Assembly (NCBI GenBank): GCA_000091205.1
Contig: AP006497.2
Strand: one strand, 5' to 3'
DNA length: 64,000 nucleotides
Source of the DNA: Cyanidioschyzon merolae
Taxonomy: Eukaryota
Shown: positions 2,756 through 31,900 of the stretch, in pieces
How positions within the stretch are numbered: position 1 is the first letter of the stretch
Layout: each line of letters begins with the position of its first letter
The notes under the pieces: model-generated
The model's database searches: none
What the model saw: the letters and a program-made list of their open reading frames with translations, nothing else
Told to the model about the DNA's origin: nothing
Program-made: the position numbers and the translations under genes

Positions 2756-2783
2756 ATGTGTGTGTGTGTGTGTGTGGGTGCTC
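2756..2783. repeat. (TG)n dinucleotide microsatellite
   Basis: Uninterrupted tgtgtgtgtgtgtgtgtgtgtg run seen directly in the sequence. Confidence 0.95.
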
Positions 2784-2844
2784 CTGCGTACGCTCGATAG
2801 TCGACTACACCCAAAGAAGAATTTGAAATAGCAATCAAACGCTC

Positions 2845-5555: not shown

Positions 5556-5970
5556 GCTCCTCTTTGAATGCAGCTGTGCTCTTTTACGGCAGACGAAGCC
5601 GTGTTGTTCATACTACCGAACAGTGGAATCACTTCATCGGATCCAGTCGATGGCAGAGCTTGTTTGCCGCATGAAGCATTTGCAAAGCGAAGGCAGTTGC
5701 GCTTCGCATGCGGGTGCACTTGTTTTTCCTGGAGCTGTAAACCCCTGCGGGCTCTCATCAACGTACGGTGACGAGGTTGCACACATCCGGGAGACATTTG
5801 GGCAAGCGCCTGTTCTCGAGAAGAGGTGCTGGTTCTGAGGTAGCGCTCACCTGGTGTTTGGTGTCGCTATTCCGCTTTCCGAGACGGTGCTGTTGTGGAG
5901 CATCGTGCGCAGGTCTCCAGGCTTCTGTTCGGTGCTTGGTTTGGTAAGCGTAGCGAGAACAGGCCTCGTG

Positions 5971-6261
5971 ATGGCCCAGAAGCGCCACACGGTTGCACAG
6001 GACCGCGAAACGGCAAACGCTGGGCACGGTGAACCGCAGGATGAGGTTGCAGGTTCGACGTCTGATGCGTGCCAAGCTCTCTTCGACGCCTACATATCCT
6101 GTACACAGCGCTATTTGAGCAGAGGCGGCTTGATCAGAGACGAGTGTCGTCAGGAAGCGAGAGCCTATCGGGAGTGCATAGCGCACTATCTGGAACAGCA
6201 GCGAGCGACCTCGAGTGTCGGTAGAGTGCGGGCAGAACCGACGCGTTTCCAGGACTCGTGA
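5971..6261 (+). CDS. Small twin Cx9C (CHCH-domain) protein, likely mitochondrial intermembrane-space
   Basis: Within ORF 5854..6261 there are two Cx9C motifs: CQALFDAYISC and CRQEARAYREC. The start is placed at the internal Met (MAQKRHTV...). The upstream part of the ORF looks non-coding. Confidence 0.5.
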   Translation: MAQKRHTVAQDRETANAGHGEPQDEVAGSTSDACQALFDAYISCTQRYLSRGGLIRDECRQEARAYRECIAHYLEQQRATSSVGRVRAEPTRFQDS

Positions 6262-7234
6262 CGCGATACGACTCGAAAGCTACTGCGTAACAGGGCAAGT
6301 ACAGAAACGAGAAGCTGTCACTGCATCCTGTGACGTGGCGCTGTTCAGGGAGCACTGCAATCAAGTCGCTTTACCGAAACTGCTGTATAGCGATGGGGGT
6401 TCTCTCGAGGCCGCTTCGCTGCATCGTTGAAGGAATAGAAGCCCCGAGGAAATCGCTTTGACAGAGAAGTCATGTGAAAACGATTGCACCAGTGAAAGCA
6501 ACTGTTATTCCTGTGTTCTGATTACAACTGCTCAAAATGAAATGGAAGCGGAGTGCGGTGTCATATCATAAAAAATGTGATGCTGGCGCTAGTCGACATC
6601 CATCCAAGCAAGCGCCAACATTGGCCTTGGTTGGTCGTTCATGATACGCTGATACGTGTTCTTTGTTTTATTTCTTTTGAACAAGGTATCCGCTCTGCAG
6701 CGAGCTGCTGGGAAGCCGCTCGGGAAACGCTCATGACAGCCTAAAGTTCTGTGTTCGGATCAAGCGAAACCTCTAGTGCAATCATCTTCGCAATGAGACG
6801 CTTGTCGGCAGGGAGCAGATGTTTACAAAGCCTCCCGTTACAATCGTGCGTTTACGAGAAGCTGCAGCGATAGCCCTGGGGGCCTCCCAGCGTCAAGAGT
6901 CCGCGCAGCATCCTCGCACGACGGCCAAGCTGGCGGTATACTCAGGTCCGAGGTCAGCGATGCTTCCTGGGACGACATTCGCAGCCGCAGCGTCCCGTAC
7001 ACCGCAAAAAGGGTATGGTTGCGTCAGAGACCTGTTCGGGATAGATTCGCTCCCCGACATACGTTCAGCGGCAGTGCTTTCTTTTGCCGAAACGGCTATG
7101 CGATAAAGCAAGCCAGCGAGCGAAAAACCATGGATACCAGTCCAGTTCAGCGCGTTCCACTCGCGACGCTCGCACGACAAGTGCGGCAACTCGGACTGGT
7201 TTGGCACTGAGCACGATTCCAACTTTTCCGGTCG

Positions 7235-8716
7235 CTAGCGGCGAGGAATTGCCCCGCTTCGACCAGACATAAGCTGCTGCATGACGCGCTGGAGGCCACC
7301 CGGACCGCTTCCCAGTTGTTGGAGCATGCGTGGGTCCATCATTCTTTGCATCTGCTGCTCCATAGCGCCTATATTGGGTATGCTGTTTGGGCCGGTACCG
7401 TGGCCAACGCCGCCGTGCCCGGGCTGCATCAGGTGCTTCATATTCTTCCCGATACGACTCCATGCCTTGCTGATCAGTTTGTATTGTGTGAGAACCTCAT
7501 CAACCTCCTGCACAGAACGACCACTACCACGAGCAATGCGACGTTTGCGTGAATCATCCCACCGCACTGAAGTACTTTCATCAAGCTCTTCCCGATTCAT
7601 GGAATCGAGAATGACGAGCATATTCCGCACTCGAGTTTGAGCGTCCTTCTCGGAGCCTTTGGGCAGTATCTCCGCCATGCCCGGCATCATGGAGGCGACT
7701 TTGCTCAGCGGCCCAAGCCGCAGCACATTCGAGTACTGCATCTGCATATCGCGCAGCGTCAGGATGCCCTGTGAAATGCGATTCATTTGCTCCTCATCGG
7801 GATTCTCCAGATCTGCCTCCGCAATGGTCGACACGAGACCACGCACGTCTCCCATGCCTAAAAGGCGTCCGACAAAACTCTGTACCTGGAACTCTTCCAA
7901 GTCGTCTAGGTGTTCGCCAGTGCCCAGGAACACGATCGGTGAATGGGTAGCGGCCACTGCGCTGAGGGCACCACCGCCACGGGCGTGGCCGTCCATCTTG
8001 GTGAGGATGACGGAACCCACTCGAACGCGCTGTTGAAACGCTCGTGCCTGGTCGTAAGCTGCCTGACCGATGGAACCGTCCATCACGAATATCACGTGAT
8101 CTGGAGTCAGCGCTCGGTCCAATTGCTCCATTTCAGCGAAGAGGGCTGCCTCCTGCTTGTGCCGTCCACTCGTATCGACCAGAATGACTTCGAAGCCCTC
8201 GCGACGGAATCTTTCGACGCCCTCGCTCGCAACCTTGACAGCGTCGGTCTCACCGTAGCGCCCATAAAAAGGAACACGTGCACGTGTTGCATTCTGTCGC
8301 AGTTGGTCGAAGGCTCCCGCTCGAAAGGTATCGGCACAAACGAGGCCGGTGCGGTATCCCTTGCGCTTGTAAAAATAGGCTACTTTGACACAGCTGGTAG
8401 TCTTGCCGTTTCCCTGGAGACCGACGAACATGATGACGTTTGATTGGCCGCGTTGTGGTCTATAGGGCGGTATGCCTGGGTCCAGCATACGACATAGCTC
8501 CTCGAAGACGGTTTTGTGGATGAGGCGGCGACGATTGGTGCCCGGCGGGAGCTCGGCTAGTCGAACGCGGTTCTTCACGCGCTGGCGCAGCTCCGAGACC
8601 TGTTTTACGTTGACATCAGCCTCGAGAAGGGCACGTGCTACCTCTTTTAGAGCTGCTTCCAAAGCTGTTTCATCTACGACGACTTGGTTGGTTAGCGACT
8701 GCAGCGCCTTGACGAT
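7235..8716 (-). CDS. SRP54: Signal recognition particle 54 kDa protein (SRP54 GTPase)
   Basis: Continuous ORF (listed 7235..8785; the likely start is MVLETLGTKIVKAL at ~8716). It has an N domain, a G domain with GLQGNGKTTSCVKVAYFYKRKG and DTSGRHKQEAALFAEMEQL, and a Met-rich M domain (MEQQMQRMMDPRMLQQLG). Confidence 0.95.
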   Translation of the reverse strand: MVKALQSLTNQVVVDETALEAALKEVARALLEADVNVKQVSELRQRVKNRVRLAELPPGTNRRRLIHKTVFEELCRMLDPGIPPYRPQRGQSNVIMFVGLQGNGKTTSCVKVAYFYKRKGYRTGLVCADTFRAGAFDQLRQNATRARVPFYGRYGETDAVKVASEGVERFRREGFEVILVDTSGRHKQEAALFAEMEQLDRALTPDHVIFVMDGSIGQAAYDQARAFQQRVRVGSVILTKMDGHARGGGALSAVAATHSPIVFLGTGEHLDDLEEFQVQSFVGRLLGMGDVRGLVSTIAEADLENPDEEQMNRISQGILTLRDMQMQYSNVLRLGPLSKVASMMPGMAEILPKGSEKDAQTRVRNMLVILDSMNREELDESTSVRWDDSRKRRIARGSGRSVQEVDEVLTQYKLISKAWSRIGKNMKHLMQPGHGGVGHGTGPNSIPNIGAMEQQMQRMMDPRMLQQLGSGPGGLQRVMQQLMSGRSGAIPRR

Positions 8717-13128: not shown

Positions 13129-15726
13129 TCAAAATGGAGATTCTGCACCCGATAGGGACGAGACGGCGTACATGCCTTCCAAGTCGGAGGCGCTCCACGC
13201 ATCCATGTTGGCTTCGTCGTCCTCCGCCGAGAGACGCAGATATTCGAGTGCTGCGAAGCGATCCCAGTCCGTTAGGTCGGGGACTGCCCGCTCCTGTCTC
13301 AAGAGTGATGGATCTCGACTTTCGATCGCGATGAACTTGTTCAAGTTGAACAGGATATTGAAGAAATGGCTCTGCATGCGACTGGATCGTAAAGCTGAAC
13401 GCGTGATCACCGGTGGATCAAGATCCTTGCTGATCATGTCCAGCAACTGACAGAGAATATCCTCAAATGCAACTGGTTCGTGCCCCAGACACTCCATTCG
13501 ATGCAGTTGTTCTGAATAGAGCCAATCAACATCGTACAGGGTGATCTTTCCATCGCCGTCCGCATCAATGCAGCGAAACCAATAATCCAAGGCCGTCTCT
13601 GAATTCTTGTCTTCCTCGCTGAGGATAAACCAGATGAAATCCGTATAGCTCATGTAGCCTGGGCGTGCGCAGTCGAGAGGCCTTCCTCGTCCACTAAAGA
13701 TACAGTCAATGATCCGGTAGGTCAGGGCGTGCCCGTTGTAGCGCAGCAGATCCTCGCGGTCGATCATGAGATCATGATCTGTGTCCAATTCCCAGAATCG
13801 ACAGTAAATCACGTAGAAATGCTCGTAGCTGAAACAACTACGCTCCTGGTTGATGTCCTCTTGTTCGTCGACGCTTCGAAAAATGTCCAAGAGACGATGT
13901 CGGCGGATATCCGACAGATACGCCTGCCCATTCGGCCGGTTCAGATAGTAGAATATCCGTTCGATGACTGTCTCAGCGTAGCGATGCTGGAACTCTGGGG
14001 TGGACTGCAGAAACTGTAAGCCGGGATGCGTCGCCAGCAGCGCATCAATGAAGGGTCGAAAGTCGGAACCAACAAGGTATCGGCGCTCATGTGCTTGTCG
14101 GTCGGCTCGATCCCGTTGCCCGTCGAGATTCCGCCGATTCGATGTCCATGAAGCTGCTGCAGACCTGGGCGAGATGCTGCTTCTTGGTGAGGATACGCTG
14201 TGAGCGTCGCTCTCCGTACGCTCCTCGTTCGGAACCGATGCGTGATAGTCACGGGAGCGTTGGAGTGCGTGGAAGAGGCGAGCGTGTCGATCGTAGCCGG
14301 CACAGTCCTCAACATACCATTGCAAGAATATGGACTGATGGATACGCTCACCCGTTGCCCCCGGGATGCTGATCTCCTTTGCGCCCTTCTTGTTCGTACC
14401 TTCTACCTCCGAAGCTACGTTGGACGTTTCGAAGTGCTGTTGGCGTTGGAGCAAGCGCTCGAAAATGACCAGCGAGACAAAGCTCGGCAACCCGACAATG
14501 TCCATAATGAGTTCAACGACCTCGCGCTGGCTCAGTGCTCCGTCTTGGCAATCAAAAGCGGCCTGTATGGCCTGTTGTTCTTCTGCAGCCCGGATGACGT
14601 GTTCGTGCGCGCGCCCATCTGGATAGTAGAAGCGCGGGATCGTCTCCGCCTTTGCGAATGCGCACTCTGATGGTACAAAGAGCGCATTCACCGCTGAACG
14701 CTTGTTCAGACCTCCTGAATGGAGCGCATTTCGCTGGTGTGCTGTCTCCTCACATGCAGGTAATGGTGGCGAGAACGATGCTCCATTCTCAGTCGAAGAG
14801 CCATCGTGGCCTACTCCCGAGTCCATATATGATGCGATCTCATGGCAACGCTCCTCGGTATCGGATTGACCATGTGCCATCGCCGCATCGCTATCCTCAA
14901 CTTCGGACCAGATCCTAAAAACCTCATACTTTCTGATGAAATGTGATACTGGCGACTGTGGGCTCGACGTCAAAGAAGCTTCCTCTGTGGAGCTACTCCG
15001 TGAACGGCCTTGCCTTGCAACGCGTGCTTCGCCACCAGCGGGCGAGCCCGGAGTTTGGCTCAAGATGCGATAGAAGGCGCTGCGCGCCGCTCCGGCCGGG
15101 GAGTTTGGCGTAATGGTATCGGCATTCGTCGGACGCTTTGCGGTTGCCCCGTGCGATGCAGCATTACACGAAGCTGTCGGGCTCGAAAGTCGTTCCTGGC
15201 GGAGCATGGTAGGCTTCGGTGAACCAGCAGTCACAAGATCTTCGTCGGTCACCCTTCCCGTGACGTCCAGTTTCCCCAGGACCTGCTCCAACCAAGCGAG
15301 CGTTTCCGGGAGAAACAACCAACGCATAAAGAGGTACTCTAAGTGCCGTTTCGGCTCTAGCGCAATATCCGTGGCCGATAGCGTCACCAGCAGTTTTGGT
15401 GCGTCCATGGTGCCGGAAATCGCGTGCACACCGGACTCGTCGCCCCCGGTAACAAACACAGCTGTAACCTCTATACCAGACTCTATGGTCTGCTCAGAGG
15501 ACATTATTGAAGCGTTCCTACGTAGATCACTCGAGCTGCTGCAGCTCAGCGGAGTCAGGCCGGGGAGATGTGTGCCAAGCCTCACCCGCTTGCGTCTCAA
15601 GACACGAGGCGAGACTGGAACGCACCTTTCAACTTTACAACCATCGCCAGAAGCCGTTCGAAAGTCGAACGACGTCGGGCGTGTACAGTAGTGGCGGCGA
15701 ACGCGCCCTAGACAAATCGTCTCCAA
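13129..15726 (-). CDS. Protein phosphatase 2A regulatory subunit B'' (PR72/PR130-like, EF-hand)
   Basis: ORF of 865 aa. The C-terminal half matches the B'' family: DIFRSVDEQED, FSYEHFYVIYCRFWELDTDHDLMIDREDLLRYNGHALTYRIIDCIFSG, YWFRCIDADGDGKITLYDVDWLYSEQLHRMECLGHEPVAFEDILCQLLDMI. The true start is possibly the internal MSSEQTIESG (~15507), because the first 12 codons overlap the outer end of the inverted repeat. Confidence 0.85.
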   Translation of the reverse strand: METICLGRVRRHYCTRPTSFDFRTASGDGCKVERCVPVSPRVLRRKRVRLGTHLPGLTPLSCSSSSDLRRNASIMSSEQTIESGIEVTAVFVTGGDESGVHAISGTMDAPKLLVTLSATDIALEPKRHLEYLFMRWLFLPETLAWLEQVLGKLDVTGRVTDEDLVTAGSPKPTMLRQERLSSPTASCNAASHGATAKRPTNADTITPNSPAGAARSAFYRILSQTPGSPAGGEARVARQGRSRSSSTEEASLTSSPQSPVSHFIRKYEVFRIWSEVEDSDAAMAHGQSDTEERCHEIASYMDSGVGHDGSSTENGASFSPPLPACEETAHQRNALHSGGLNKRSAVNALFVPSECAFAKAETIPRFYYPDGRAHEHVIRAAEEQQAIQAAFDCQDGALSQREVVELIMDIVGLPSFVSLVIFERLLQRQQHFETSNVASEVEGTNKKGAKEISIPGATGERIHQSIFLQWYVEDCAGYDRHARLFHALQRSRDYHASVPNEERTESDAHSVSSPRSSISPRSAAASWTSNRRNLDGQRDRADRQAHERRYLVGSDFRPFIDALLATHPGLQFLQSTPEFQHRYAETVIERIFYYLNRPNGQAYLSDIRRHRLLDIFRSVDEQEDINQERSCFSYEHFYVIYCRFWELDTDHDLMIDREDLLRYNGHALTYRIIDCIFSGRGRPLDCARPGYMSYTDFIWFILSEEDKNSETALDYWFRCIDADGDGKITLYDVDWLYSEQLHRMECLGHEPVAFEDILCQLLDMISKDLDPPVITRSALRSSRMQSHFFNILFNLNKFIAIESRDPSLLRQERAVPDLTDWDRFAALEYLRLSAEDDEANMDAWSASDLEGMYAVSSLSGAESPF

Positions 15727-18195
15727 TTGCTGTGTAGACGCCTTCCCGTCTTTTTGGAGCGGCCGCCAACTACTGCTTCCAACTTTTTCTCATATAGTTC
15801 GACCTTGAGAGGTTGTCCAACAAAGTTCACTCTTGTCAACGCTGGAGGTCTCGTCTCCAGCGCCGCACATCTCCTTATATTGATGGCGGCGTTAAAGTCT
15901 CGGTTCACAAACTCCATACGTTTCGTGCCATCACTGGTTGTACTTACTGATGCAAGCAATCCTCGAACTTTCGCTCTCCTTTCCATTTGCCCTTCCGGCA
16001 GCGCTCCGTACTTTTTCGTATCCTTAGGGCTCCGCTGGCACTTTTCCATCTCCACCCTCTGGAGTGTACACCCCAGTTCATGGTGTGTATACGATGTTCG
16101 AAACTCATCTACAGGTATTGTTTCAAAACGCCGTGCGCGCTCCCTCTACGTTCTCGTCGTTGGAGCTGGCGTCGTCCTTTTTGGGTCTTCCATCGGCCTG
16201 CTCCGTACGCTACTATGAGCCTCTGACTTTTATCCTCCTTCAAGTCACTCAACTGATTGAGAAAGTTCGCGAACGCACGCTGCATCCCACCGTAGAGATT
16301 CATTCGCAAACGAGCCCACCGGGGCTTGGTATACTCCTCCCACAGCGCATCCCAATGGGCAACACGAACTTCCATGAATTTCCGAAAAGCATCAAGGTCC
16401 GCTCCTCGGCTCGTCACCTCGCTCATAGCTTCCAGGTGATCCTTCATTCCTGAATTCCATGTAACGATTTTCTTCCTCGCATTCACTATACCGGATTCTC
16501 GATAGTATCTCGCTCTCGAGAACCTCAACAGACGCATGTCTTTCTGACGAAAGTTGCCGTCAGCACCATCTTCCGCACGCTTGGGAGCAGCGATGGTGAT
16601 GATATTCGTGTTTCCGGGGTCCGCGCCAAGGACAAAGTCGTTATCCTGCACTTTCTGCATCGCAGGATCCGCCTCCTACTTTTCTTCATGCTTTGCCGCG
16701 TCAGCGACAAAGTCGTTATCCTGTACCTCCAGCGTCTCAGGATCCGCCTCCTTCCCATCTTCATCCTTCGTCACGTCAACGTTAAAGTCGTTATCCTGCA
16801 CTTTCTGCATCGTAGGACCCGCCTTCTTCTCATCTTCATGCTTCGTCACGTCAACGACAAGGTCGTTATGCTCCACCTCCTGCGTCGCAGGACCCGCCTC
16901 CTTCTTTGCTTCATCCTTCGTCACGGGCGCAGCCGAGGGCGGAACTGGCCGATCTTTCCTCAATGCCGATAGTGTACACAGATGGCTACTCCATCGGTTT
17001 CGATCAACCCAGTGAGTACCTTTTGTTTGCTGACTTTGAGAAGTTTGAAATTGAAGATATTCTTCCGGTACGCCTCCTGGTTTTCACCGGAGAACTCCTC
17101 CCTGCGAACATTGAACTCCAGACTGATCTCCTTCATAATGCCGTGAAGGATTCTGGAGTGGATGGACACAAAATCTGACCTTATGTTGCACATTGGAACC
17201 ACGTTGAAGCGCTTCCCCATTAGGAACGCCTTCCGTCTCTCCCGCTCTTCATTTCTTTCCTCACTCAGCTTCATCTCCGCTTTGCGTTCGAGCTCTCGGT
17301 CCAGAAACACGAAATATCGCAGGATGAGGCGATAATATCTTTCCTTATCTTTTTTCAACGCTGATATCTTTTCTGCTGGATTCGCCAGCCCCAAGACTGC
17401 ACAGTGCTCTTGTATAGCCGTACGGATTACAGAATCCTCATTCGTGCTCTCGTTTGACGCCTTCTTGTCAACGAATTCGATCTCATCTTCATGCTAGCGA
17501 TCTTTCGTGATGGCATCGATAATCGCCCATATTCCATTGCGAGATAGGCCCGGGTAGCGTGCAAACACGGCGCGTATCATGAAACGTTCGAGGTTCATAG
17601 TCAAATGCTTCTTCAGGTTCGTGAGCTACTTCATCGCCCCATAGTCGTAAATATTCGAGTCACCCTTGTATCGAGTACCATTGAATCTGTAAAAGGGATG
17701 TTTTTCGTGGAGGGTATGCACTAGCACATTTTCCTTCCGCGCTTTCTCTTTACGAAGCATCAGGTGTTGAATAAACGTCTTATCGATGGACTCGTCCGGA
17801 ATCTCGACCGTTTCGATCTGCGTCACGTCGCGATACATCTCTCTCGCCAAATGCATCAGTCCTGACGAAGCCTTGACAAGACTCTTGGAGTACGAGTCGA
17901 CACGGTTTTCGATTGCGTCTCGCAACTTTTCCCTGTACGGATCCTTGATATGTCCAAGAAGAATGGTTGTCGCCACCTTCTCGACGTACAGCCGTCTTTC
18001 TTGCCGCCTTCGACGTAGGGCCTCTCCCTTTAGGTCCTTCTTCGCTTCCTTGTCTTCTGGACTCGGCACAGTTTTCGTTTTTTTCTGGTAGTCGGCGACA
18101 CTGAGCCTCCAGGATCGTCGGCTTGCTGTTTCATAGCTTTTTTGTTTCTTTGAAAAACAACGCTCTTTGAAGGCTTCTGTTACATACAGCGACAA
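15708..18195 (-). CDS. TnpB/Fanzor-like RuvC-fold nuclease, copy 1. It has the same 4-segment structure (17626-18195, 16960-17394, 16109-16963, 15708-16055), plus 3 extra in-frame 25-aa repeat units before RuvC-I
   Basis: The ADPGNTNII motif has its Asp at ~16619-16621. The [10 protein letters not shown] motif has its Asp at 15897-15899. Segment translations are ~98% identical to copy 2. The same TAG codons and frameshift positions are present. Confidence 0.65.
16625..16925 (-). repeat. 4 tandem units of 75 bp, in frame, encoding 25-aa repeats ([25 protein letters not shown] and variants) just upstream of the RuvC-I motif of nuclease copy 1; copy 2 has a single unit (23871-23945)
   Basis: Minus-strand ORF 16676..16963 shows [25 protein letters not shown] / [25 protein letters not shown] / [25 protein letters not shown] / AAKHEEK...[18 protein letters not shown]. 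Confidence 0.85.
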
Positions 18196-18399
18196 AACGC
18201 TTGACTAGACTTGTTTGAGGTTTGAACCACAAATGAATTAGAAAACTACACTTTGCTACGACCTGAACGGATATCCAATGTTTTACAGCTGAACAACACG
18301 TTACTGATGCCCACGACAGGGACCTTTACCACAATGAACGGAGGGGCGGAGGCAGTAGCAGCAGAAAATATTGACGATAATTCTGAGTAGTTATCCGCT

Positions 18400-21300
18400 G
18401 CTCCCGAAACAACGCTGCAGCTTCGGGCGCAAAATCTGGGTCCATCCTCGAGCTCGGGCTCAGTTTTACCTCCTTCTTCGGTTTCTACCTCAACTCTGGA
18501 AACAATCTCGGCGGATATTTTGGAAGACGGCTGGCGGTATGTTCGCGTTCGAAGCTGGAACGAACGACTTGCCCGCCTATGTGTTTGGGGAGCGGATACA
18601 AAGCCGCTGAAAGGTTGGTTCGTAGAGTATCCCCAGTGGTTGAGGGGAGCTTCATGTGTCCGGCAAGATAAAGGTCGCATTCGAGTCGACCTTGACTAAT
18701 GTACATCTGATTCTACGCTAGTGCGGCGCCAAGCACTCAATGAACGACTGGAATGCGGGAGGCGCTGGTGGCATGTACGCTCACACACCCCGTGGAGGGT
18801 GCATCTAAATTGACGACGTATCTCTGGAGTACCGCAGCGCTATTCCTATTCCGTTACGCGCTACAAATCGGTAGGTATTGCATCATGGAATATTTGTGGT
18901 GTAGCCTCGAAACTAGAATAAGAGATATCGAATTACTAGTAGAGTAAAGAGGATCAGATACAACTGAAGGACTCTACAAAAGGAAAAGCGATCCAACGAG
19001 ATACGGAGAAGGAGACACAGGAACCTCATGATCCACCTAGATGCAAAATAACCAGAGAAAGCAGCTCAGGAAAGAGCCCGAAGAAGAAGAAGACCAACAA
19101 GAAAAGACAGAAGAATAGAGAGAAGAACTCCCAAGCGAGCCCATCATGAGTGATCCCCCGAAAGAGCACCCCAGCAGGAACTCAAGAAAGCCGTCGCCAA
19201 ACCGAGTCACCTACTCACAGCGCTGAAGATCCGAAAAGCCGTGCGTACAAATCTTTAGACCAATTGGCACGCGAGTTTGTAGATGGGAATCAGAAGACTG
19301 CCAGAGAACTGGGACGGCTGGCACCAGAACGCAACAGTTGGAAACCGCAGTACCTGAAACGACGTATCAAAACTCGGATTGATGAATGCCACCGACTCAA
19401 TAAGATCCTCAACCGCACCGCCATACGCGCCAACGCCGGAGACAAGGAAGCGAAGGCAGCGCTACCGGCGCTACAGGCGCAACATGAGGAAGCTATCAAA
19501 AGAAAGAAGAAACTTTCCAGAGAAGACAAACGAGAGGATCGAAACCGCAAAATCGCCTCTCTGATGGAATCTACGCTAGAGAGCACCAACGAAGATGAGA
19601 CCTGGCGCTATATTCGATCGAGACTCGACCCACCGAAAAGTGCTTGGGGCTCACACCAACTGTTAAAAAGAAGAGCTGAGGACGGAGAGTGCCTCAGTGA
19701 ATGAGGCCTGGATAGACCACGGGAGAGAGCTGCATGAAGACGCAACTGGGAACTGCCAAGACCGAATCTATTGGCATCAGTATGCTGCAGAACTACCGCG
19801 CCTCAACCCGGTACCGGAATGGAACGACCCAATCTTCTGGCCTGAATCTGTTCGGACCCTGCTATGCTCAAGCAACCGCAAAACACCTGGCATCGACGGT
19901 ATCGCGACGGAGTGGATGAAACTGGCGACCCCAAAAGACGGGACAACAGGGACACCATCGATACCAGATGAACCTGACACAATCTTAGGCAAACGCCCTC
20001 TGGAGCTCATCCAACGCATGTTTGAAGAAGCATACATCCCTGATGTATGTAGGAGTGTTGAGGTCGTATCGATCCTCAAAAAGGACTCCCACATACACAG
20101 ACATGAACAACTACCGGACTATTCGCCTCATCCCGTCAATCATGAAGCTACTTTGCGCCATGCTCACGAACCGGATCCAGAGGGGCCTCGAGGAGCGCAA
20201 GTTCTTCGCTTCAGAACAGGCTGGATTCCGGAGTCGCGAGGAGTGCATGAGCCATGTCCTGACCCTCATCGGAGTGGCGCAACGTCGCTCCATTAGCGAC
20301 CAACAACCAGCTTACGTATGCTTCATCGACTTTCAAAAGGCCTTTGACACGGTCCCGCACGAGGCTCCATTTCTCAAGATGGAACGCGCCGGAGTCTCCG
20401 AAAAGTGCTTGGCGTTCTTCAGTGCGCTCTATGCAGACTCGTGGATGCGCATCCGACTGGGCGACAGCTCAAGAACCCCTTCCAGAAGAATCCGCCGTGG
20501 ACTGCGACAGGGCGACCGCGCATCCCCGCTCCTTTTCAACATCTTCATCAACGATCTGCTGAACAACGGCAGACAATTCGTGGCTGAGGCGCCGTGGATA
20601 GACTGTGGAGATGTCCGGTGAGGAGCCCTCAGATAGGAACCGCCTCGCAGGCCTTCTATTCGCGGACGATGTCGTGCTGTTGGCACCCACCCCGGAAACG
20701 CTTGCGGCTAGCATGGAACAAGTCAGCGCCTGGACCGATCGCTGGGAGATGAGCATAGGAGCATCGAAGTGCGGCGTCATGGTCATCCATGGAGACTCGC
20801 AGAGCATTCGCAATCGCTCGTGGCGGTTGCAGAATCAGGAAATTCCGGTCGTGGAAAAATATCGCTACCTGGGGGTCGGTCTCATGCTGACGCTCGACGA
20901 AAAGGCACACATCGACGAGATGATCGCCAAGATGCATAGAGGTACAGCGATCGCACGCCCATTCCTATCCGATCCCTCTATCTGCATAGCAATCCGTACG
21001 AGGGCACTAAGGATGTGTATCATCCAGCCTGCGACCTGGGGTGCTGAATTGTGCGGCATAAAGCACAAAAATGCCTCGCGTCTGCAGACAGCCGCCAACA
21101 GGGCAATGCGACTCGTTCGTGTTGGATGCTCAGTGCAGAGCAGAGCAACCAACCCGTTGACACTCGGACCTGAACTCCAAACACCATCGACAGAGGCGAT
21201 AGCAGCAGGCTTCCAGGCACGTGTGTGGGCCAAAGGGCCCATCATGCGCACCTGGTTCAGTCGGAGTTTCATGCAGACCCCAACGCACTCCAAGAAATCT

Positions 21301-22400
21301 TGGATGGAATCGACGCAGATTTGGTTGGAGCGCCACTTAGGCGAAAACACGCTCCCCAATCATTCCCCAGGAATATAGAAGGCTCCCGCCGCCTCTAGCG
21401 AACGGTCCGAACAACCATATGGGAATTTAGACAAGGTACCAGTCGCGCAAGTAACGCCGGCTTGACCCTATCCGGAACTACACCCTAGCATACACATGCA
21501 AGTACTGGTAGGGGGTGCTGGAATTCCCGGGACTTGCTCGAGGTACCCAGTGGCTCGCCAAAATCCGCGTTGGTGGCTTCCGGCTGGCAGCACCGGCTCT
21601 AAGCCGGAAAGGAGCACTGGAATCGCACTGGGAATCACACTGTCCCTGCTGTGGAGACGAGAGCCCCCGAGAAGCTGACGCATTTACTGTTACAGTGCCC
21701 GCGCTAGAATCAGGAGCGCAGCGAGCTCCTTGAAGGACAGCAGCAGCTGGGCATCAGCGTGATAGTGGAAGGCCGGACACTCATTCTGAGTGTAGCACTG
21801 GCAACTGATGGTCCGCTAACCGAGCCGCAGCGCTCGTTAGTGGCGAACAAACTCACATTCTACCTTCTAAGCGGCAGGTCCAACGAATCGGATGAGCACA
21901 CGGGTTTAGTGCTCTTTGTGCCTGCCTACTGGCGGGTGTCAAGCACAAACCCGCATTGCCGACCGACAACACATTCAATGCATGATCACGAAGGAGAGAG
22001 GCGGCTCCCAGGATTCATCCTAACAGCCAAGTTTCTCCAGCGTGTCGTGCAGCGAAGGTAAGACTGCATTTGCAGACTCGCTGAGCATATATCGACGAAG
22101 AGACCCGATTCTACGTCGGGTGAACCACGCCTCGAGCCGACGCCCTCTGTGGTATAGCAACGCCGTTCTGTCTCTATGAGCTATCTGCTCCAGCATTTAA
22201 GGTGCAAAGGCGAATACGGAGCGGCAGCTACTAGGCACACACGATAGGACGTATGAAACGACCAGAATATCTGAGATGAAGCATAGGTAATCTAACTTGG
22301 AGGCAGGTGCTTCATCATGGACGCTTTCCCGAAAGCCATTATCCATTCCAAATTCTGGGATCCATGGTCAATGGAAACGTCTTGTCAATAACAAAAAAAC
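18400..22400 (+). mobile_element. Degenerate, probably 5'-truncated non-LTR retrotransposon (LINE, L1/CR1-like RT) occupying the centre of the palindrome
   Basis: RT motifs lie in three different frames: KTPGIDGIATEWMK (19697..20296), YRTIRLIPSIMKLL...QAGFRSREE...FIDFQKAFDTVPHE...GLRQGDRASPLLFNIFINDL (20022..20621), LLFADDVVLLA (20605..21378). A C-terminal Cys/His motif HCPCCGDES...H is at ~21640-21700. An A-rich tail-like stretch aataacaaaaaaacaaa is at ~22385-22400. No endonuclease domain is recognisable upstream. Confidence 0.8.
19697..21378 (+). pseudogene. LINE reverse transcriptase ORF2 remnant with at least two frameshifts
   Basis: RT domains 0-7 are spread over ORFs 19697..20296, 20022..20621 and 20605..21378 in different frames. 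Confidence 0.8.
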
Positions 22401-22482
22401 AAATTGCGCTCGGTGGGCGCACCTCGGAGATCGGGAAGTCAACTGACACGACGCGCATGCCGCCGTAGAAGGGTAACGCGAT

Positions 22483-24880
22483 TGGGATCAGTAACGTGTT
22501 GTTCAGCTGTAAAACATTGGATATCCGTTCAGGTCGTAGCAAAGTGTAGTTTTCTAATTCATTTGTGGTTCAAACCTCAAACAAGTCTAGTCAAGCGTTT
22601 TGTCGCTGTATGTAACAGAAGCCTTCAAAGAGCGTTGTTTTTCAAAGAAACAAAAAAGCTATGAAACAGCAAGCCGACGATCCTGGAGGCTCAGTGTCGC
22701 CGACTACCAGAAAAAAACGAAAACTGTGCCGGGTCCAGAAGACAAGGAATCGAAGAAGGACCTAAAGGGAGAGGCCCTACGTCGAAGGCGGCAAGAAAGA
22801 CGGCTGTACGACGAGAAGGTGGCGACAACCATTCTTCTTGGACATATCAAGGATCCGTACAGGGAAAAGTTGCGAGACGCAATCGAAAACCGTGTCGACT
22901 CGTACTCCAAGAGTCTTGTCAAGGCTTCGTCAGGACTGATGCATTTGGCGAGAGAGATGTATCGCGACGTGACGCAGATCGAAACGGTCGAGATTCCGGA
23001 CGAGTCCATCGATAAGACGTTTATTCAACACCTGATGCTTCGTAAAGAGAAAGCGCGGAAGGAAAATGTGCTAGTGCATACCCTCCACGAAAAACATCCC
23101 TTTTACAGATTCAATGGTACTCGATACAAGGGTGACTCGAATATTTACGACTATGGGGCGATGAAGTAGCTCACGAACCTGAAGAACCATTTGACTATGA
23201 ACCTCGAACGTTTCATGATACGCGCCGTGTTTGCACGCTACCCGGGCCTATCTCGCAATGGAATATGGGCGATTATCGATGCCATCACGAAAGATCGCTA
23301 GCATGAAGATGAGATCGAATTCGTTGACAAGAAGGCGTCAAACGAGAGCACGAATGAGGATTCTGTAATCCGTACGGCTATACAAGAGCACTGTGCAGTC
23401 TTGGGGCTGGCGAATCCAGCAGAAAAGATATCAGCGTTGGAAAAAGATAAGGAAAGATATTATCGCCTCATCCTGCGATATTTCGTGTTTCTGGACCGAG
23501 AGCTCGAACGGAAAGCGGAGATGAAGCTGAGTGAGGAAAGAAATGAAGAGCGGGAGAGACGGAAGGCGTTCCCAATGGGGAAGCGCTTCAACGTGGCTCC
23601 AATGTGCAACATAAGGTCAGATTTTGTGTCCATCCACTCCAGAATCCTTCACGGCATTATGAAGGAGATCAGTCTGGAGTTCAATGTTCGCAGGGAGGAG
23701 TTCTCCGGTGAAAACCAGGAGGCGTACCGGAAGAATATCTTCAATTTCAAACTTCTCAAAGTCAGCAAACAAAAGGTATTCACTGGGTTGATCGAAATCG
23801 ATGGAGTAGCCATCTGTGTACACTATCGGCATTGAGGAAAGATCGGCCAGTTCCGCCCTCGGCTGCGCCCGTGACGAAGGATGAAGCAAAGAAGGAGGCG
23901 GGTCCTGCGACGCAGGAGGTGGAGCATAACGACCTTGTCGTTGACGCGGACCCCGGAAACACGAATATCATCACCATCGCTGCTCCCAAGCGTGCGGAAG
24001 ATGGTGCTGACGGCAACTTTCGTCAGAAAGACATGTGTCTGTTGAGGTTCTCGAGAGCGAGGTACTGCCGAGAATCCGGTATAGTAAATGCGAGGAAGAA
24101 AATCGTTACATGGAATTCAGGAATGAAGGATCACCTGGAAGCTATGAGCGAGGTGACGAGCCGAGGAGCGGACCTTGATGCTTTTCGGAAATTCATGGAA
24201 GTTCGTGTTGCCCATTGGGATGCGCTGTGGGAGGAGTATACCAAGCCCCGGTGGGCTCGTTTGCGAATGAATCTCTACGGTGGGATGCAGCGTGCGTTCG
24301 CGAACTTTCTCAATCAGTTGAGTGACTTGAAGGAGGATAAAAGTCAGAGGCTCATAGTAGCGTACGGAGCAGGCCGATGGAAGACCCAAAAAGGACGACG
24401 CCAGCTCCAACGACGAGAACGTAGAGGGAGCGCGCACGGCGTTTTGAAACAATACCTGTAGATGAGTTTCGAACATCGTATACACACCATGAACTGGGGT
24501 GTACACTCCAGAGGGTGGAGATGGAAAAGTGCCAGCGGAGCCCTGAGGATACGAAAAAGTACGGAGCGCTGCCGGAAGGGCAAATGGAAAGGAGAGCGAA
24601 AGTTCGAGGATTGCTTGCATCAGTAAGTACAACCAGTGATGGCACGAAACGTATGGAGTTTGTGAACCGAGACTTTAACGCCGCCATCAATATAAGGAGA
24701 TGTGCGGTGCTGGAGACGAGACCTCCAGCGTTGACAAGAGTGAACTTTGTTGGACAACCTCTCAAAGTCGAACTATATGAGAAAAAGTTGGAAGCAGTAG
24801 TTGGCGGCCGCTCCAAAAAGACGGGAAGGCGTCTACACAGCAGTTGGAGACGATTTGTCTAGGGCGCGTTCGCCGCCACC
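22483..24880. repeat. Right arm of the large inverted repeat (contains nuclease copy 2 on the plus strand)
   Basis: Reverse-complement match to 15690-18310, read directly. Confidence 0.9.
22600..24862 (+). CDS. TnpB/Fanzor-like RuvC-fold nuclease, copy 2. The reading frame is split into 4 ORF segments (22600-23169, 23401-23835, 23832-24461, 24515-24862; ~657 aa total), so it is either an intron-containing gene or a pseudogene
   Basis: A RuvC-I-like motif [16 protein letters not shown] has its Asp at 23949-23951. A RuvC-III-like motif [15 protein letters not shown] has its Asp at 24671-24673; D-x-N-A-A-x-N-I is the TnpB/Cas12/Fanzor signature. The RuvC-II region reads [12 protein letters not shown] (no Glu), as reported for Fanzor1-type proteins. 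No CxxC...CxxC zinc ribbon is seen. Segments 1-2 are joined in frame through two TAG codons (23167, ~23296). Segments 2-3 differ by a frameshift. Segments 3-4 could be joined by a 56-nt GT..AG intron (24458-24513). A basic NLS-like stretch RRRRQERR lies near the N-terminus. There is no in-frame ATG at the N-terminal end. Confidence 0.65.
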
Positions 24881-25163
24881 GCTGAAAACTGCGGGAAGCA
24901 ACGTCTTTCTTTTGAAAGAGGTTTGTTGTTGCTGGTGGCGGTTGTGCATCTTTATATCCTGGATCGTGTCAGCGATCTCACACGGTACAAAAGTTGAAGG
25001 GGTGCAACACACGTACAGCTTCTCTGTCTGGGCACGTGCAACGCTCGAATCCTGGCGGCGCTCTCGAGACTGATAGAGAAAGCCCGCTTGTGAGGTATGC
25101 TCGGCGCTTGTTTGATTCGCGCTCTTACCCTGCGCAGGAAGCCGTGAACAAAATACTGCTGGC

Positions 25164-27260
25164 ATGGAGGCAGAAGGGGTTGCTGTTGCGACTGCCGCAG
25201 AGCAGGCAGCACTAGTATTCTTCTGCGGTCCGCTGAACGGCAGCATCTTTGTAGCGGAGTGCGCAGAAGTAATAGATGCCGCTATCGTTGAGAGCTCCGA
25301 GGCGTGGCGCTGGACGGTGCGACCAGTGTGGCTGCGCTCTCCCACGAGCGACAACGCATTGAGCCCCGCACTGGCGAGAGCAACCACTGACGGACGCGAA
25401 AGAAAGCGACAGCGGACGAAACCTGCTGACGTATCCGCCAATGTGTCCGAACGAGAGCACCTCCGAGCAGCCAAGGTTGCCGCTGCCCGCTCTCTGCGTG
25501 GCAATGGGGTACGCTGTATCGCGGCTCAGCGCTGCGGGCGGGCGACAAGTCGGGGCGATGGCGAGACCTGCTGGATGCTTGCCGCTGCCGGAGATGATAA
25601 GATACTGCGCGTTTTTCGAGGGAAACACATACAACCCGCGCAAGCGACAGATGCAGCGATGCTCTGGGAGACTGTCGTCGAAAAGTAAGCTGGTTCGGTA
25701 CGAGTACCTCGCTAGCATGCCGAGATCTAAGGATGAAGCGTATAACTGCATTGGACTAGAGTTTCTGAGTCTAATTCTGTGCTGAAAGCGTTGCTTTCCC
25801 TTGGCTGTCTGAAGCTTTCCGGAACGCTGGCCGGGTGCCTCGCACGCTTGACGATACGAGCGTCGCGGATGGAGCCTTTGCTGGACAGATAAACTAACCG
25901 CGGTAATTTTGAGCACAGAGCGAACCCGAAACGGATGACAGCTGTACAGCTGGGTTTCGACGGCCGTGTGGCGCTCACAGCCGACAAATTCGGTGACGTC
26001 TACGCGCTCCAGATCGGGGAGGAAGCGTTGCTGCCAGAGCCGGCTTGGCAGTATTTGTTGCGTCAGCCGGTATATGTTGCGGGGGACGCTTCTGTAGAGC
26101 CAGTCATGGGGCATTTGTCAATCATTACATCGTTGGCAATCGATCCTGGAGGCCGTCTCATAGCTAGTGCTGACATCGAGGGCCAAATTCGCATTTCGGC
26201 ATTTCCGGAGGTGTACAGAGTAGAGCAAATCTACTCTAGTTGCGGCGGTGATCCATCATGGTGCACATCCAGCGACTTTATCACGAGACTCTCCTGGAAG
26301 CATGGTAGTCAAACGCCAACGCTCATAGGCGCTGGGACCGACGTCTGGTTCGTGGCAAAACAAGTGAAGCCGGTGCCCGCGGCACGCGACACTTGCGATG
26401 GTGAATCCTGTTGGCGTATCTGGGGTGGGCGTCTCGGCTCCTTGCGCGGAACTGGAGCGGCCTATGAGGGATCAACTTCAGACGAGAACGCATCAATGGT
26501 GGCCCGAGCGCCTTCTGAGGGTGCAGCTGGCCGCGCACTGGGTCGAGCATCGGGGCTGGAATCTTGCTCGACGCACGGTTTCACGTGGATTTGTCTGGAT
26601 ATCGATGCTCGCCTGACGCTAGCGCTCTGGGGCAACGCTCAGCATCAGACGTGCTTCAGTATTATTTCGTTGATGAACGCGGAATCCGAGAGCGCACTGC
26701 ATCGTTTGAATGAAAGACTGGGCGATGCTCGAGCTCGCTATCGAACGCGTATACCAACCGGATGCTGCTCACTGCCGCTCAGCACGTGCTTGCCCAAGGG
26801 CCGTGAACACCAGCTCCGGTCGTTATCGACGCCCGTAGAACTGTGCTCGATGATCTTCGTTCCGACAGCGCCTGGTCCACTTGATGCCGCGGTCTGCTCG
26901 ATGCATGAGACAGGCGCCCGGTGGACACCTGAGGTGACCCGAACCTCCACAGACGTCTCTGAACCCGAAGCTGTTCGTTTCTTCTTTGTTCTTCCCTTTG
27001 TGGAAAGCGATGACCCAGCAGCGGAGGATGCGCTGTTGCCTCTGGCGGCGACGATGCAGTGGACGCTCAACCAGTCCGTCGCAACTTGCATCCGAGAGTC
27101 CAGCGGGGCGTTCAGTACATCTGAGCGAGCAAACACACCTTACAATGCCTTACATCACTCGGGCTGGAGCTGGATATTCGATCAGGCATGCAACGCCGTG
27201 ACCGGAGGCGACGGAAGCCCAGCGCCCGTGCCGACCCCCACTACGGAAACCTCGAGGTAG
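25164..27260 (+). CDS. tRNA (guanine-N7)-methyltransferase non-catalytic WD-repeat subunit (TRM82/WDR4-like), probably 2 exons (25164-25688 and ~25935-27260) with a long low-complexity C-terminal extension
   Basis: Downstream ORF: LTADKFGDVYALQI...VMGHLSIITSLAIDPGGRLIASADIEGQIRISAFPEVYRVEQIYSSCGGDPSWCTSSDFITRLSW, which includes the WDR4/Trm82 KFGDVY motif. Upstream ORF 25164..25688 carries a WD-like CWMLAAAGDDKILRVFRGKH. The intron position was not resolved. Confidence 0.55.
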
Positions 27261-30084: not shown

Positions 30085-30548
30085 GTTCACATTCCGCTGA
30101 TAAAGCGCTTTGCTGAGTACGAGACGTTCTCGTGATGAGAGCGCAGCCCCGGTGCTTGTCTCTCGCAGTGATCACGCCCATGGCAGAGCACTGGGAACCC
30201 CCGCATTGCACTCATAAAGCGCTTTGCTGAGTACGAGACGTTCTCGTGATGAGAGCGCAGCCCCGGTGCTTGTCTCTCGCAGTGATCACGCCCATGGCAG
30301 AGCACTGGGAACCCCCGCATTGCACTCATAAAGCGCTTTGCTGAGTACGAGACGTTCTCGTGATGAGAGCGCAGCCCCGGTGCTTGTCTCTCGCAGTGAT
30401 CACGCCCATGGCAGAGCACTGGGAACCCCCGCATTCCACTCATAACGCGCTTTGCTGAGTACGAGACGTTCTCGTGATGAGAGCGCAGCCCCGGTGCTTG
30501 TCTCTCGCAGTGATCACGCCCATGGCAGAGCACTAGGAACCGGAACGA
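30085..30548. repeat. Tandem repeat, 4 copies of a 114-115 bp unit
   Basis: The unit ...aaagcgctttgctgagtacgagacgttctcgtgatgagagcgcagccccggtgcttgtctctcgcagtgatcacgcccatggcagagcactgggaacccccgcattgcactcat recurs at 30102, 30216, 30330 and 30444. Read on the minus strand (ORF 30087..30770) it encodes 38-aa repeats. Confidence 0.95.
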
Positions 30549-31900
30549 GTGCGTGCACTGCGATTCAGCTTGAGAATGAGGAGATCCTCGATACCATGTG
30601 CTAAACGAATACCTGGTGGACAGCAAATATCCCGACCATATCGCCGCTCTTCGAGTTGCATACGCGCCACACTGATTGCTAAAAACGGAGGCGGTATCAC
30701 GTCGCGCTCCACGAACACATCGATGGCTCGTACGATCCAGTTCACGAACCCGAGTTGAAGGTCGGTGCATTCCTCCAGATCGGTCGGACGAACTGGCAGC
30801 CGCATTCGAAAGCCACGGGGGTGCAGTACACCCGATACATCAACGGCATAAAAACCCGCATGAATAGGCAGCATGTTCACCGGATCGATTTGGAGCTGTC
30901 GTAGAACAGCCCGATAACAGTGGTCGATCGGTTGTGCTGATCCGTTTTGCACAGCGCTTAATGCCGCTTCATCAGTGTAAACAATGAGGTTATAGAGTGG
31001 TCCGCAAAACGTCAGTGAGTTACGTCGATTCCGAGCGCAGCGGTGGTAAACATGCAGGTCCGCATAGAGCGGCTCCAACGGCACACTAAGATAGATGTCA
31101 GGCTGTTGATAGCGTTGAATCACCGCAGGGATCATGGTTTTCGAGTGTCTGTTTCGGGACCTTGCCGAGCTGGCACGGTTCGGTCGCAGCATCCCCGTCA
31201 GGCTAGTGAGTGCGGGGTGTAGAGGCGCCAACCACTGAGGCCCCGGTGACTGCTCCACTGCTGCAGACGCTTTCTGCACAGTCGCTGCCTGAGCTGCCTG
31301 CCGGTGCTGTTGGTTGCGTAGGCCCCAGCGCGACTCTTGGAGTGATCTAGCAACGCGACTGGCAACCTGAGGCTGCACGCGAGCCGAGGCTAGCGCCGCT
31401 CGTTGCACAGCGATCCAGCCCTGCATGTGCCTCTCGGAACAACCGGCGTTTGTTGAGCTATACCAACAGCTGGACGTGAAACTCAAACTTCGAAACTGAA
31501 GTATAAACGCTCTGAAAGAAAACAACGCCAACGCTGCAGCGGCAGGTGCGCTGTCGTCTCTCGGAACACTGAAACCGATGATTGTATGCCGCTGAATGCC
31601 ATGGTTGTGGGCAAAGCAGCGAATTCTGGAGAACCTGTACCAGAACACCCTATTTATCTTGGTTTCCCCAAAGGCATGGAACAAAGGGAAAGTATCGAGT
31701 AGAGTGGAGACAAGTCCCGCAACGTCTGTGTGCTGTGCCTGCTGGCATGACCTGTACCAGAACACGCTATTTATCTTGGTTTCCCCAAAGGCATGGAACA
31801 AAGGGAAAGTATCGAGTAGAGTGGAGACAAGTCCCGCAACGACTGTGTGCTGTGCCTGCTGGCATGAAGGAGAACGGCATGACGTGTCGGTGTCAGTCAC
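30533..31900 (-). CDS. Hypothetical 455-aa ORF whose N-terminus is built from the 117-bp repeats; C-terminal ~200 aa are globular-looking but the family was not recognised
   Basis: A long ORF in GC-rich DNA. The C-terminal segment ...PIDHCYRAVLRQLQIDPVNMLPIHAGFYAVDVSGVLHPRGFRMRLPVRPTDLEECTDLQLGFVNWIVRAIDVFVERD... has mixed composition, suggesting a real domain. Confidence 0.35.
   Translation of the reverse strand: MTDTDTSCRSPSCQQAQHTVVAGLVSTLLDTFPLFHAFGETKINSVFWYRSCQQAQHTDVAGLVSTLLDTFPLFHAFGETKINRVFWYRFSRIRCFAHNHGIQRHTIIGFSVPRDDSAPAAAALALFSFRAFILQFRSLSFTSSCWYSSTNAGCSERHMQGWIAVQRAALASARVQPQVASRVARSLQESRWGLRNQQHRQAAQAATVQKASAAVEQSPGPQWLAPLHPALTSLTGMLRPNRASSARSRNRHSKTMIPAVIQRYQQPDIYLSVPLEPLYADLHVYHRCARNRRNSLTFCGPLYNLIVYTDEAALSAVQNGSAQPIDHCYRAVLRQLQIDPVNMLPIHAGFYAVDVSGVLHPRGFRMRLPVRPTDLEECTDLQLGFVNWIVRAIDVFVERDVIPPPFLAISVARMQLEERRYGRDICCPPGIRLAHGIEDLLILKLNRSARTRSGS
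31634..31867. repeat. Tandem repeat, 2 copies of a 117-bp unit
   Basis: cctgtaccagaaca...ctgctggcatga recurs at 31634 and 31751. It is ORF-preserving in both the + (31596..32006) and - (30533..31900) frames. Confidence 0.9.

Follow-up and report, generated by a model that had tools for sequence, protein, structure and literature searches.

In the genome of Cyanidioschyzon merolae, we examined a 64,000-nt stretch of contig AP006497.2 (assembly GCA_000091205.1), referred to here as the window, and found in it a 9.2-kb structure in which two inverted copies of the Fanzor1 element CMe-1 enclose a long interspersed nuclear element (LINE). We consider it probable that these are dead CMe-1 Fanzor1 copies of separate origins whose interior has been homogenised, and that the LINE between them is typical of the family. 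For the family as a whole, sequence comparison of many loci puts the chances at about even that the Fanzor core has been mobilised together with the LINE or by it.

Geometry of the inverted repeat

The inverted repeat is made up of a left arm on the minus strand (15691-18311; 2,621 nt) and a right arm on the plus strand (22484-24879; 2,396 nt), with a spacer of 4,172 nt separating the two. A global alignment of the arms contains 20 substitutions across 2,396 aligned bases (99.2% identity), a similarity that is far above chance expectation, and the sole indel, 225 bp long, is accounted for by the left arm having three more of the 75-bp tandem units. The reading frames diverge from the centre, meaning that the arms are head-to-head, and the element copies themselves run past the near-identical arms, to ~15641 on the left and to 22406 and ~24934 on the right. 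A first-pass annotation, made from the sequence alone, had proposed inverted arms at this place that encode RuvC proteins of the TnpB/Fanzor type and that stand head-to-head around a degenerate LINE, and each of these proposals was confirmed by our analysis.

Assignment of the arms to Fanzor1

Alignment with published elements identifies both arms as copies of CMe-1A/CMe-1, a Fanzor1 element published for the C. merolae genome in 2013; the family is therefore not a new one. According to that description, CMe-1A is present in ~150 copies, each of which matches a 3,169-bp consensus at ~80% identity, terminal inverted repeats are absent, no target-site duplications and no class were assigned, and the first 635 bp equal a separate element, TE-N2_CMe (Bao & Jurka 2013, Mobile DNA 4:12; PMC3627910). 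The supplement of that paper (PMC3627910) provided the consensus along with the 734-aa CMe-1 protein, and we compared both to the window. Using blastn, consensus positions 649-3166 align to 22406-24918 in the right copy at 86.4% identity, and positions 729-3137 align to 18308-15681 in the left copy at 84.8-90.5% identity. With their tails included, the right core copy spans 22406-24934 (+) and is complete at both ends, covering consensus 649-3169 plus an extension of ~15 nt, and the left core copy spans 15641-18311 (-) and runs from consensus 729 to the 3' end.

Both arms are collinear with the 734-aa protein, and the catalytic residues of the split RuvC domain are found in both in the order D-E-D. 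The RuvC-I motif reads GADPGNTN or DADPGNTN, with its D codon at 23949-23951 in the right arm and 16621-16619 in the left. RuvC-II reads VDEFRTS (E codon at 24464-24466 and 16106-16104, respectively), and the RuvC-III motif is also present in both arms, with its D codon at 24671-24673 and 15899-15897. A protein-database search returned 37 close homologues, all of them from hot-spring metagenomes and labelled only as DUF8286; this is the Pfam name of the family (PF26935), where no link to TnpB is given. An exhaustive HMMER search recovered 1,494 cluster representatives, and in an alignment of 46 diverse full-length members (A2), D484 and E656 are invariant while R724-D725 is at least 90% conserved.

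The profile built from A2 reaches the characterised Fanzor1 proteins in the PDB, namely those of Parasitella (9CF0; 4e-19), Spizellomyces (SpuFz1, 8GKH; 7.9e-13) and Guillardia (9CER; 7.6e-5), and the similarity extends over the WED-like 'TDGV' region as well as RuvC-I, II and III. The D-E-D triad of these proteins is also found in the CMe-1 clade, as is the RuvC-II glutamate in its 'DEFRTS' context. A second profile, built from 22 close homologues (A1), matched the green-algal Fanzor1 proteins VCa-1 (6e-9) and CVu-1 (3e-5), compared to a best E-value of 2.2 among 200 shuffles. The first-pass annotation had pointed to the Pfam models PF01385 and PF07282, which gave negative or sub-threshold results: PF07282 touches only the RD motif, with E-values of 0.07-0.23, and six of the 46 distant members reach E ≤ 0.01. 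It was only the deep family profile that reached solved Fanzor1 structures. Searches of Pfam and NCBIfam with the open reading frame (ORF) fragments and the joined RuvC half returned nothing significant, and neither phmmer with the conceptual protein nor the shallow 22-sequence profile found matches in the PDB. Rfam at gathering thresholds gave no matches in the window.

The CMe-1 clade differs from the characterised Fanzor1 proteins in the loss of the CxxC...CxxC zinc finger and in a variable 25-aa repeat before RuvC-I. Applying the 2013 Fanzor1 signature, D-X-[TS][TS]-X-X-C4-X-RD, we found no C4 zinc finger (CxxC...CxxC) between RuvC-II and RuvC-III in the 46 diverse members of the A2 alignment (P0001 residues ~656-725). 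The CMe-1 protein reads ...EKC in this region, and the family consensus is free of CxxC pairs. The 2013 paper assigns CMe-1 to Fanzor1 although the C4 zinc finger is absent (PMC3627910). A further difference is that the characterised Fanzor1 proteins are experimentally studied nucleases, whereas in the CMe-1 clade an omega-RNA and nuclease activity are putative and the window copies are pseudogenes. The AlphaFold2 model made from the 22-sequence alignment has a mean predicted local distance difference test score of 34, which is too low for a fold comparison.

Decay of the coding sequences

The arms had been described as genes in the first-pass annotation, but judging from their reading frames, neither of them is a working Fanzor gene and the locus is not capable of nuclease action today. 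A codon-aware comparison with the consensus ORF, together with the motif coordinates, places the two pseudogenes at 15708-18134 (-) and 22661-24862 (+). Six disabling lesions are common to both arms, three of which are 1-nt deletions (codons 20, 391, and 579) and three of which are TAG stops (codons 170, 214, and 589). In the left arm, the deletions are at 18075, 16963, and 16177 and the stops at 17628, 17496, and 16148; in the right arm, the deletions are at 22720, 23832, and 24393 and the stops at 23167, 23299, and 24422. An additional TAG at 16678 is private to the left arm. Introns were considered as a cause of the frame breaks and ruled out, as measured against the consensus the frame is interrupted by 1-nt deletions and by TAC/AAG codons turned into TAG through single-base changes.

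Repeat finding and the arm alignment also revealed four in-frame 75-bp units in the left arm (16624-16923, -), just upstream of RuvC-I, each encoding 25 acidic and lysine-rich residues, while a single unit is found in the right arm, as in the consensus. We also used 80 related loci from metagenome contigs (numbered with the prefix L), for which the window spacer was compared by blast and the loci were then mapped module by module. The copy number of the 75-bp repeat among these loci ranges from 1 to 7. The left-arm units differ from one another by 15-20%, so the multi-unit state is old, and the lone unit of the right arm would be explained by a subsequent deletion or by gene conversion having passed over a large mismatch. 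Comparable arrays are present at L032 (11220-11600) and L073 (9111-9415), with units that are 79-85% alike. At L049, an 801-aa ORF (5240-7645) consists of a Fanzor C-terminus that reads through into a host FAD-dependent dehydrogenase-like gene, and counts of ORFs of at least 650 aa near copies therefore partly reflect host read-through of this kind, not intact Fanzor genes.

The LINE spacer and its junctions

By its protein matches and motifs, the spacer is a dead LINE of the type that lacks long terminal repeats (non-LTR), which we place at 18312-22405 (+) based on PF00078, the mapping of TE-N2_CMe, and a 5' end set from L073 and L068. The reverse transcriptase (RT) domain PF00078 was matched at E-values of 1.8e-19 and 2.6e-6, split across several frames at ~19900-21378, and the closest solved relatives are R2 (1.5e-16) and LINE-1 ORF2p (1e-12). 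The motifs KTPGIDGI, FIDFQKAFDTVPH, GLRQGD, and FADD can be read in the translation, and there is a CCHC-like motif (HCPCCG) at 21638. Measured against the true 5' end seen in L073 and L068, the window LINE is missing its first ~140 bp. Its 3' region (21861-22387) corresponds to TE-N2_CMe (CMe-1A consensus 4-534) in reverse complement and is followed by an A-rich tract at 22388-22405. Close homologues of this LINE are annotated as 'retroelement, alive' in C. merolae. For an endonuclease domain (APE or restriction-like), we found no Pfam match at E ≤ 0.1 in the decayed window copy or in its nearest full-length relatives, P0263, P0264, P0274, and P0279; APE is present in more distant relatives (P0273).

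The LINE is not an incidental insertion; comparison across loci indicates that the junctions it forms with the two arms are the usual ones in this family as a whole. The 5' boundary of the Fanzor core is fixed at consensus ~649 (648/649), as in L001 and many other loci, and several architectures are found upstream of it. In the first, a co-oriented LINE 3' end and A-rich tract precede the core, and this junction is the same base for base at no fewer than eight distinct sites, with LINE 5' truncations that vary (q2991, q3911, and others). In the second, a complete inverted LINE is joined by its 5' end to the 5' end of the core through the same ~10-nt filler at six or more distinct sites. The third is the CMe-1A form, with an inverted 635-bp LINE 3' segment upstream of the core, and the fourth has a longer inverted LINE segment (L001). 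Overall, RT-element sequence lies directly upstream of the core in 28 of the 43 distinct sites that have a complete core 5' end.

The window combines a co-oriented junction on the right and a head-to-head junction on the left around one LINE. Alignment with L067, L024, L017, and L029 places the point where the left core meets the RT element's 5' region head-to-head at 18311-18312, and compared with the family form this junction is ~230 bp short: the RT element lacks its first ~140 bp, the filler of ~10 nt is gone, and so are 80 bp from the start of the core. More than one copy is present at 27 of the 80 loci, and the other inverted pairs are 81-82% identical.

Two pairs of orthologous contigs differ from each other at these junctions. 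L030 (1-430) and L086 (1-1351) are 98% identical over 11.6 kb and diverge exactly at the core 5' boundary, where one has an inverted LINE 5' end and the other a co-oriented LINE 3' end; the contrast may reflect flipping of the spacer in a two-armed locus or an assembly ambiguity. L013 (1-1780) and L001 (8340-8530) are orthologous from the A-rich tract onward (97%), and to the left of this tract L013 has an inverted Fanzor core attached through the canonical junction and L001 has host DNA. The L013 arrangement could be an assembly effect at repeats.

3' ends and proposed mode of spread

The 3' end of the element exists in two versions that both recur at many other family loci, a 'TTTTC' hairpin type, as in the right arm, and a 'TTCGA' hairpin type, as in the outer 50 nt of the left copy (15641-15690). 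Both form a terminal hairpin (e.g., 24905-24934 and 15641-15675), which has a folding energy of -22.4 kcal/mol in the left tail (z=-4.9). G.U pairs with GT-rich bases past the published end lengthen the stem, up to 19 bp (L034 12266-12310, z=-7.5), and because the stem is extended by G.U pairs, the hairpin is specific to the sense RNA. The element is thus ~10-15 nt longer at its 3' end than the 2013 consensus. We had considered the GT-rich sequence past the hairpin to be a LINE-type microsatellite tail, a reading that was withdrawn, as this sequence is the 3' arm of the extended stem. The last 261 nt have a folding z-score of -1.8, and RNAalifold found no common structure among the 3' tails, the two variants of which pair in different registers. 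The stem-loop could be a recognition site for the RT, an omega-RNA stem, or both.

Partial copies of the core are biased toward this end: 27 retain only the 3' end, none only the 5' end, and seven are internal, a bias that stands at ~17 versus 0 after doubly sampled loci are removed. All copies end in the hairpin, and inverted forms break at the internal A-rich tract. The 3'-end bias, the hairpin, the A-rich breakpoints, and an RT encoded in cis are together the pattern expected of target-primed reverse transcription with 5' truncation and twin priming. LINE-1 retrotransposition gives rise to products with 5' truncation, twin-priming 5' inversion, and 3' transduction, and the CMe-1 copies likewise share a fixed 3' end while their 5' ends vary, have inverted 5' segments that break at the A-rich tract, and include a downstream module that travels with the LINE. 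A difference is that the CMe-1 3' end is a stem-loop, as in 'stringent-type' LINEs, and not poly(A).

Under this reading, the mobile RNA would comprise the LINE RT, the A-rich tract, the Fanzor ORF/core, and the terminal hairpin, in that order. Target-primed reverse transcription anchored at the hairpin of the core would yield 5'-truncated copies as well as 5'-inverted, twin-priming-like ones, and core-only copies could derive by retrocopying from a sub-genomic Fanzor transcript. The head-to-head forms, like CMe-1A and TE-N2_CMe, would then be twin-priming inversions, and the window palindrome may be one such compound product. We put at slightly under one half the chance that the CMe-1 Fanzor1 module is an integral and co-mobilised 3' part of a non-LTR retrotransposon, which would make this the first retrotransposon to encode and spread an OMEGA/Fanzor nuclease. 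It is conceivable, though a long shot, that a LINE without an endonuclease of its own uses the RNA-guided Fanzor to open the target for reverse transcription; the undetected endonuclease domain leaves room for a Fanzor-supplied nick without supporting it.

Several points weaken the case for spread by the LINE. We found no poly(A) tails on the copies and no target-site duplications, with no convincing direct repeats at 10 loci, where copies are ~15% diverged and exact ends are uncertain. The inversion junctions are shared by descent and not unique to each event. The divergence of the RT part does not correlate with that of the core (r=0.07), all pairs being about equally diverged in a star-like phylogeny. 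Truncation at the 5' end together with a 3' hairpin is also typical of Helitron-type rolling-circle elements, and 15 of the 43 sites have cores without recognisable RT sequence upstream.

Those 15 sites would fit a link that is insertional instead, with a site-specific LINE that repeatedly targets the 5' end of the CMe-1 core, while the cores themselves move by DNA-based or rolling-circle means. In the PDB, the RT is matched best by R2 proteins, which belong to site-specific elements, and the co-oriented junction is always at the same core boundary, with variation in the length of the A-rich tract and in the LINE 5' truncation. Helitron-borne Fanzor1 elements of Chlamydomonas are 5'-truncated as well (PMC3627910). 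However, the head-to-head type, with its shared filler at six or more sites, cannot have arisen by independent insertion each time, and the same is true of the CMe-1A type, which has the same inner breakpoint in about 150 copies (PMC3627910). Because neither junction can be independent each time, RT-derived sequence and core were copied as whole composite units. The RT parts (mean identity 86%) are also as diverged as the cores (83.5%) and hence are not recent arrivals, and the 27:0 bias of core fragments to the 3' end is a further point against insertion. We therefore regard an insertional link as unlikely, and prefer joint mobilisation of the core and the LINE.

The first-pass annotation had also suggested a foldback-like transposon, and the whole palindrome, core(-), LINE(+), core(+), might be the master mobile form of the family, either as an element with long terminal inverted repeats or foldback-like structure or through reverse transcription primed from both target ends, in the manner of the inverted terminal repeats in Penelope-like elements, with one-armed copies as truncated derivatives. 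Both junction types are indeed family-wide, and transcripts of either strand would finish in the same 3' hairpin. The opposite junctions of L030 and L086 are what would be expected of a two-armed locus that flips or assembles ambiguously, and L013 has core(-), an RT fragment, and core(+) on one contig. Yet L013 may be an assembly join, given the host DNA at this place in its orthologue L001, and a search for the whole two-armed unit around a full RT element gave no clear second case among 82 loci, with L013 and L030/L086 ambiguous. RT elements with a complete 5' end adjoin unrelated DNA in L073 and L068, and these two loci, like L024 and L032, are one-armed on long contigs. The lower identity of the other inverted pairs is accompanied by differing spacers (that of L085 has no RT), and the outer tails in the window are of two different types. 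A mobile palindrome is, in our estimation, distinctly improbable.

Probable homogenisation of the arms

The arms share 298 differences from the consensus and have ~20 private ones, and because shared differences so outnumber private ones, the arm interiors have a very recent common ancestor. This near-identity ends at consensus 3127, 40-50 nt short of the 3' end of the element, and beyond this point the arms are strongly unlike. Past GCCGCCAC, TACTGTACAC follows in the left arm as it does in the consensus (7 of 2,000 shuffles were as good), and then comes a CGTCGTTCGACTTTCGAACGGC tail, which is also found in L030, L032, L034, L045, L055, and L091. The right arm has a consensus-type tail, CGCTGAAAAC...CGTCTTTCTTTTGAAAGAGG, and none of 2,000 shuffles was as good. 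Since the tails differ and each is attested in the family, neither arm is a plain copy of the other. From this pattern, it is most likely that the two arms began as separate copies and that gene conversion between these nearby inverted repeats then made their interiors alike, in line with homogenisation as one of the possibilities that the first-pass annotation had named for the near-identity. The interiors of the two cores (consensus 729-3127) would have been made 99% identical after both were in place, and the conversion was possibly triggered by a break, the one from which the ~230-bp deletion of the left junction resulted.

Gene conversion is known to occur between the arms of large palindromes, such as those of primate sex chromosomes and the inverted repeats of organelles. 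The window arms resemble these cases in being 99% alike even though they are ~15% removed from the consensus, and in having tract boundaries inside the homology. The window case differs in that it is small (2.4 kb), its arms are dead transposons, and there is no apparent selective benefit. On the other side of the balance, conversion is read here from the pattern alone, and donor and recipient are not assignable, as in this star-like family the type of tail does not follow how similar the bodies are. A chimeric origin at insertion, through template switching of the RT, predicts the same pattern.

A simpler origin for the palindrome would be a recent inverted segmental duplication, by fold-back repair or template switching, in which one CMe-1 copy was mirrored across the LINE and diverged by ~1% since. 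This possibility had also been raised in the first-pass annotation, and it would account for the six lesions and 298 consensus differences common to the arms, as well as for the fairly even spread of the 20 differences between them. It is nonetheless very unlikely, as a duplication does not explain why identity stops before the 3' end and gives way to a different family-attested tail in each arm. Moreover, the identical tract begins and ends within the element, as conversion predicts, and not at arbitrary points as a duplication would produce, and the left junction matches an architecture seen at no fewer than six other sites. Gene conversion between two separate copies is thus the reading that we favour for the arms.

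Support for the assembly

The 9.2-kb structure is flanked by a PP2A regulatory-subunit gene (13129-15504, -) and by a gene encoding a 441-aa protein (25935-27260, +). Exact matches to proteins of C. merolae strain 10D were obtained for five host proteins of the window. Both outer junctions, each of which faces a different one of these host genes, recur in four to five independent metagenome assemblies. The metagenome contigs that match this locus are from near-identical strains and break ~130-150 bp inside each arm. The inner palindrome junctions were not found in the other assemblies examined and have the reference assembly as their only support, which counts against the structure as reconstructed here; the source record is presumably a finished chromosome, and the genome it belongs to was published as being 100% complete. 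Palindromes are error-prone in cloning and assembly, but it is hardly credible that a single-copy locus was mirrored by misassembly, given that 20 substitutions, a 225-bp indel, and a private stop codon set the arms apart, that their 3' tails are wholly different, and that the reproduced outer junctions face different genes. L085 was considered as an orthologous palindrome and ruled out, as it has no PP2A or WD flank and its spacer is without RT.

Relation to known systems

The arms are of the same family and from the same genome as CMe-1A, and neither the arms nor CMe-1A have terminal inverted repeats or detectable target-site duplications. There are also differences: TE-N2_CMe is treated as separate in the 2013 paper (PMC3627910), whereas here the first 635 bp of CMe-1A are the reverse complement of the LINE 3' end, and the window copies do not have the TE-N2 module in its consensus position. 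A second point of comparison comes from outside the Fanzor elements, and concerns the arrangement of the retroelement. Penelope-like elements have inverted or direct pseudo-LTRs and a GIY-YIG domain, and in them, as in the present family, an inverted partial copy of the element's 3' part lies ahead of the full-length retroelement. The RT of the window differs from theirs: it is a LINE-type enzyme, matched best by R2 and L1, that has the FADD and GLRQGD motifs, and no GIY-YIG domain was found.

OMEGA nucleases (TnpB, IscB, and Fanzor) are currently seen as helpers of DNA transposons that excise. A retrotransposon that carries or spreads a Fanzor is unobserved according to a 2026 review, and a systematic physical coupling of the CMe-1 Fanzor1 family to a LINE appears to be undescribed. 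The locus on its own is of little weight, as it is a dead pair of copies from a Fanzor1 family known in the C. merolae genome since 2013. If, however, a LINE carried this Fanzor1 and amplified it to ~150 copies, this would account for the lack of terminal inverted repeats and target-site duplications in CMe-1A and for its having resisted classification, and TE-N2_CMe would be reclassified as the 3' end of a LINE. It would also call into question 'restorative homing' as the reason for transposons to retain nucleases of this kind, and the question would be testable in a tiny, finished, and genetically tractable genome.

Other repeats in the window

Further, heavily decayed relics of the Fanzor1 family and the TE-N2/LINE 3' end are present at 32772-34546 (+), 47468-47716 (+), 50922-51031 and 51307-51652 (-), and 58615-58806, and the 64-kb window holds at least five family remnants in total. 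Two tandem repeats are unrelated to the family, one with approximately four 114-bp units (30090-30541; 96-98% identity) and the other with two ~117-bp units (31633-31867; 98%). The copy number of the 114-bp array differs between the window and the metagenome contig L007.

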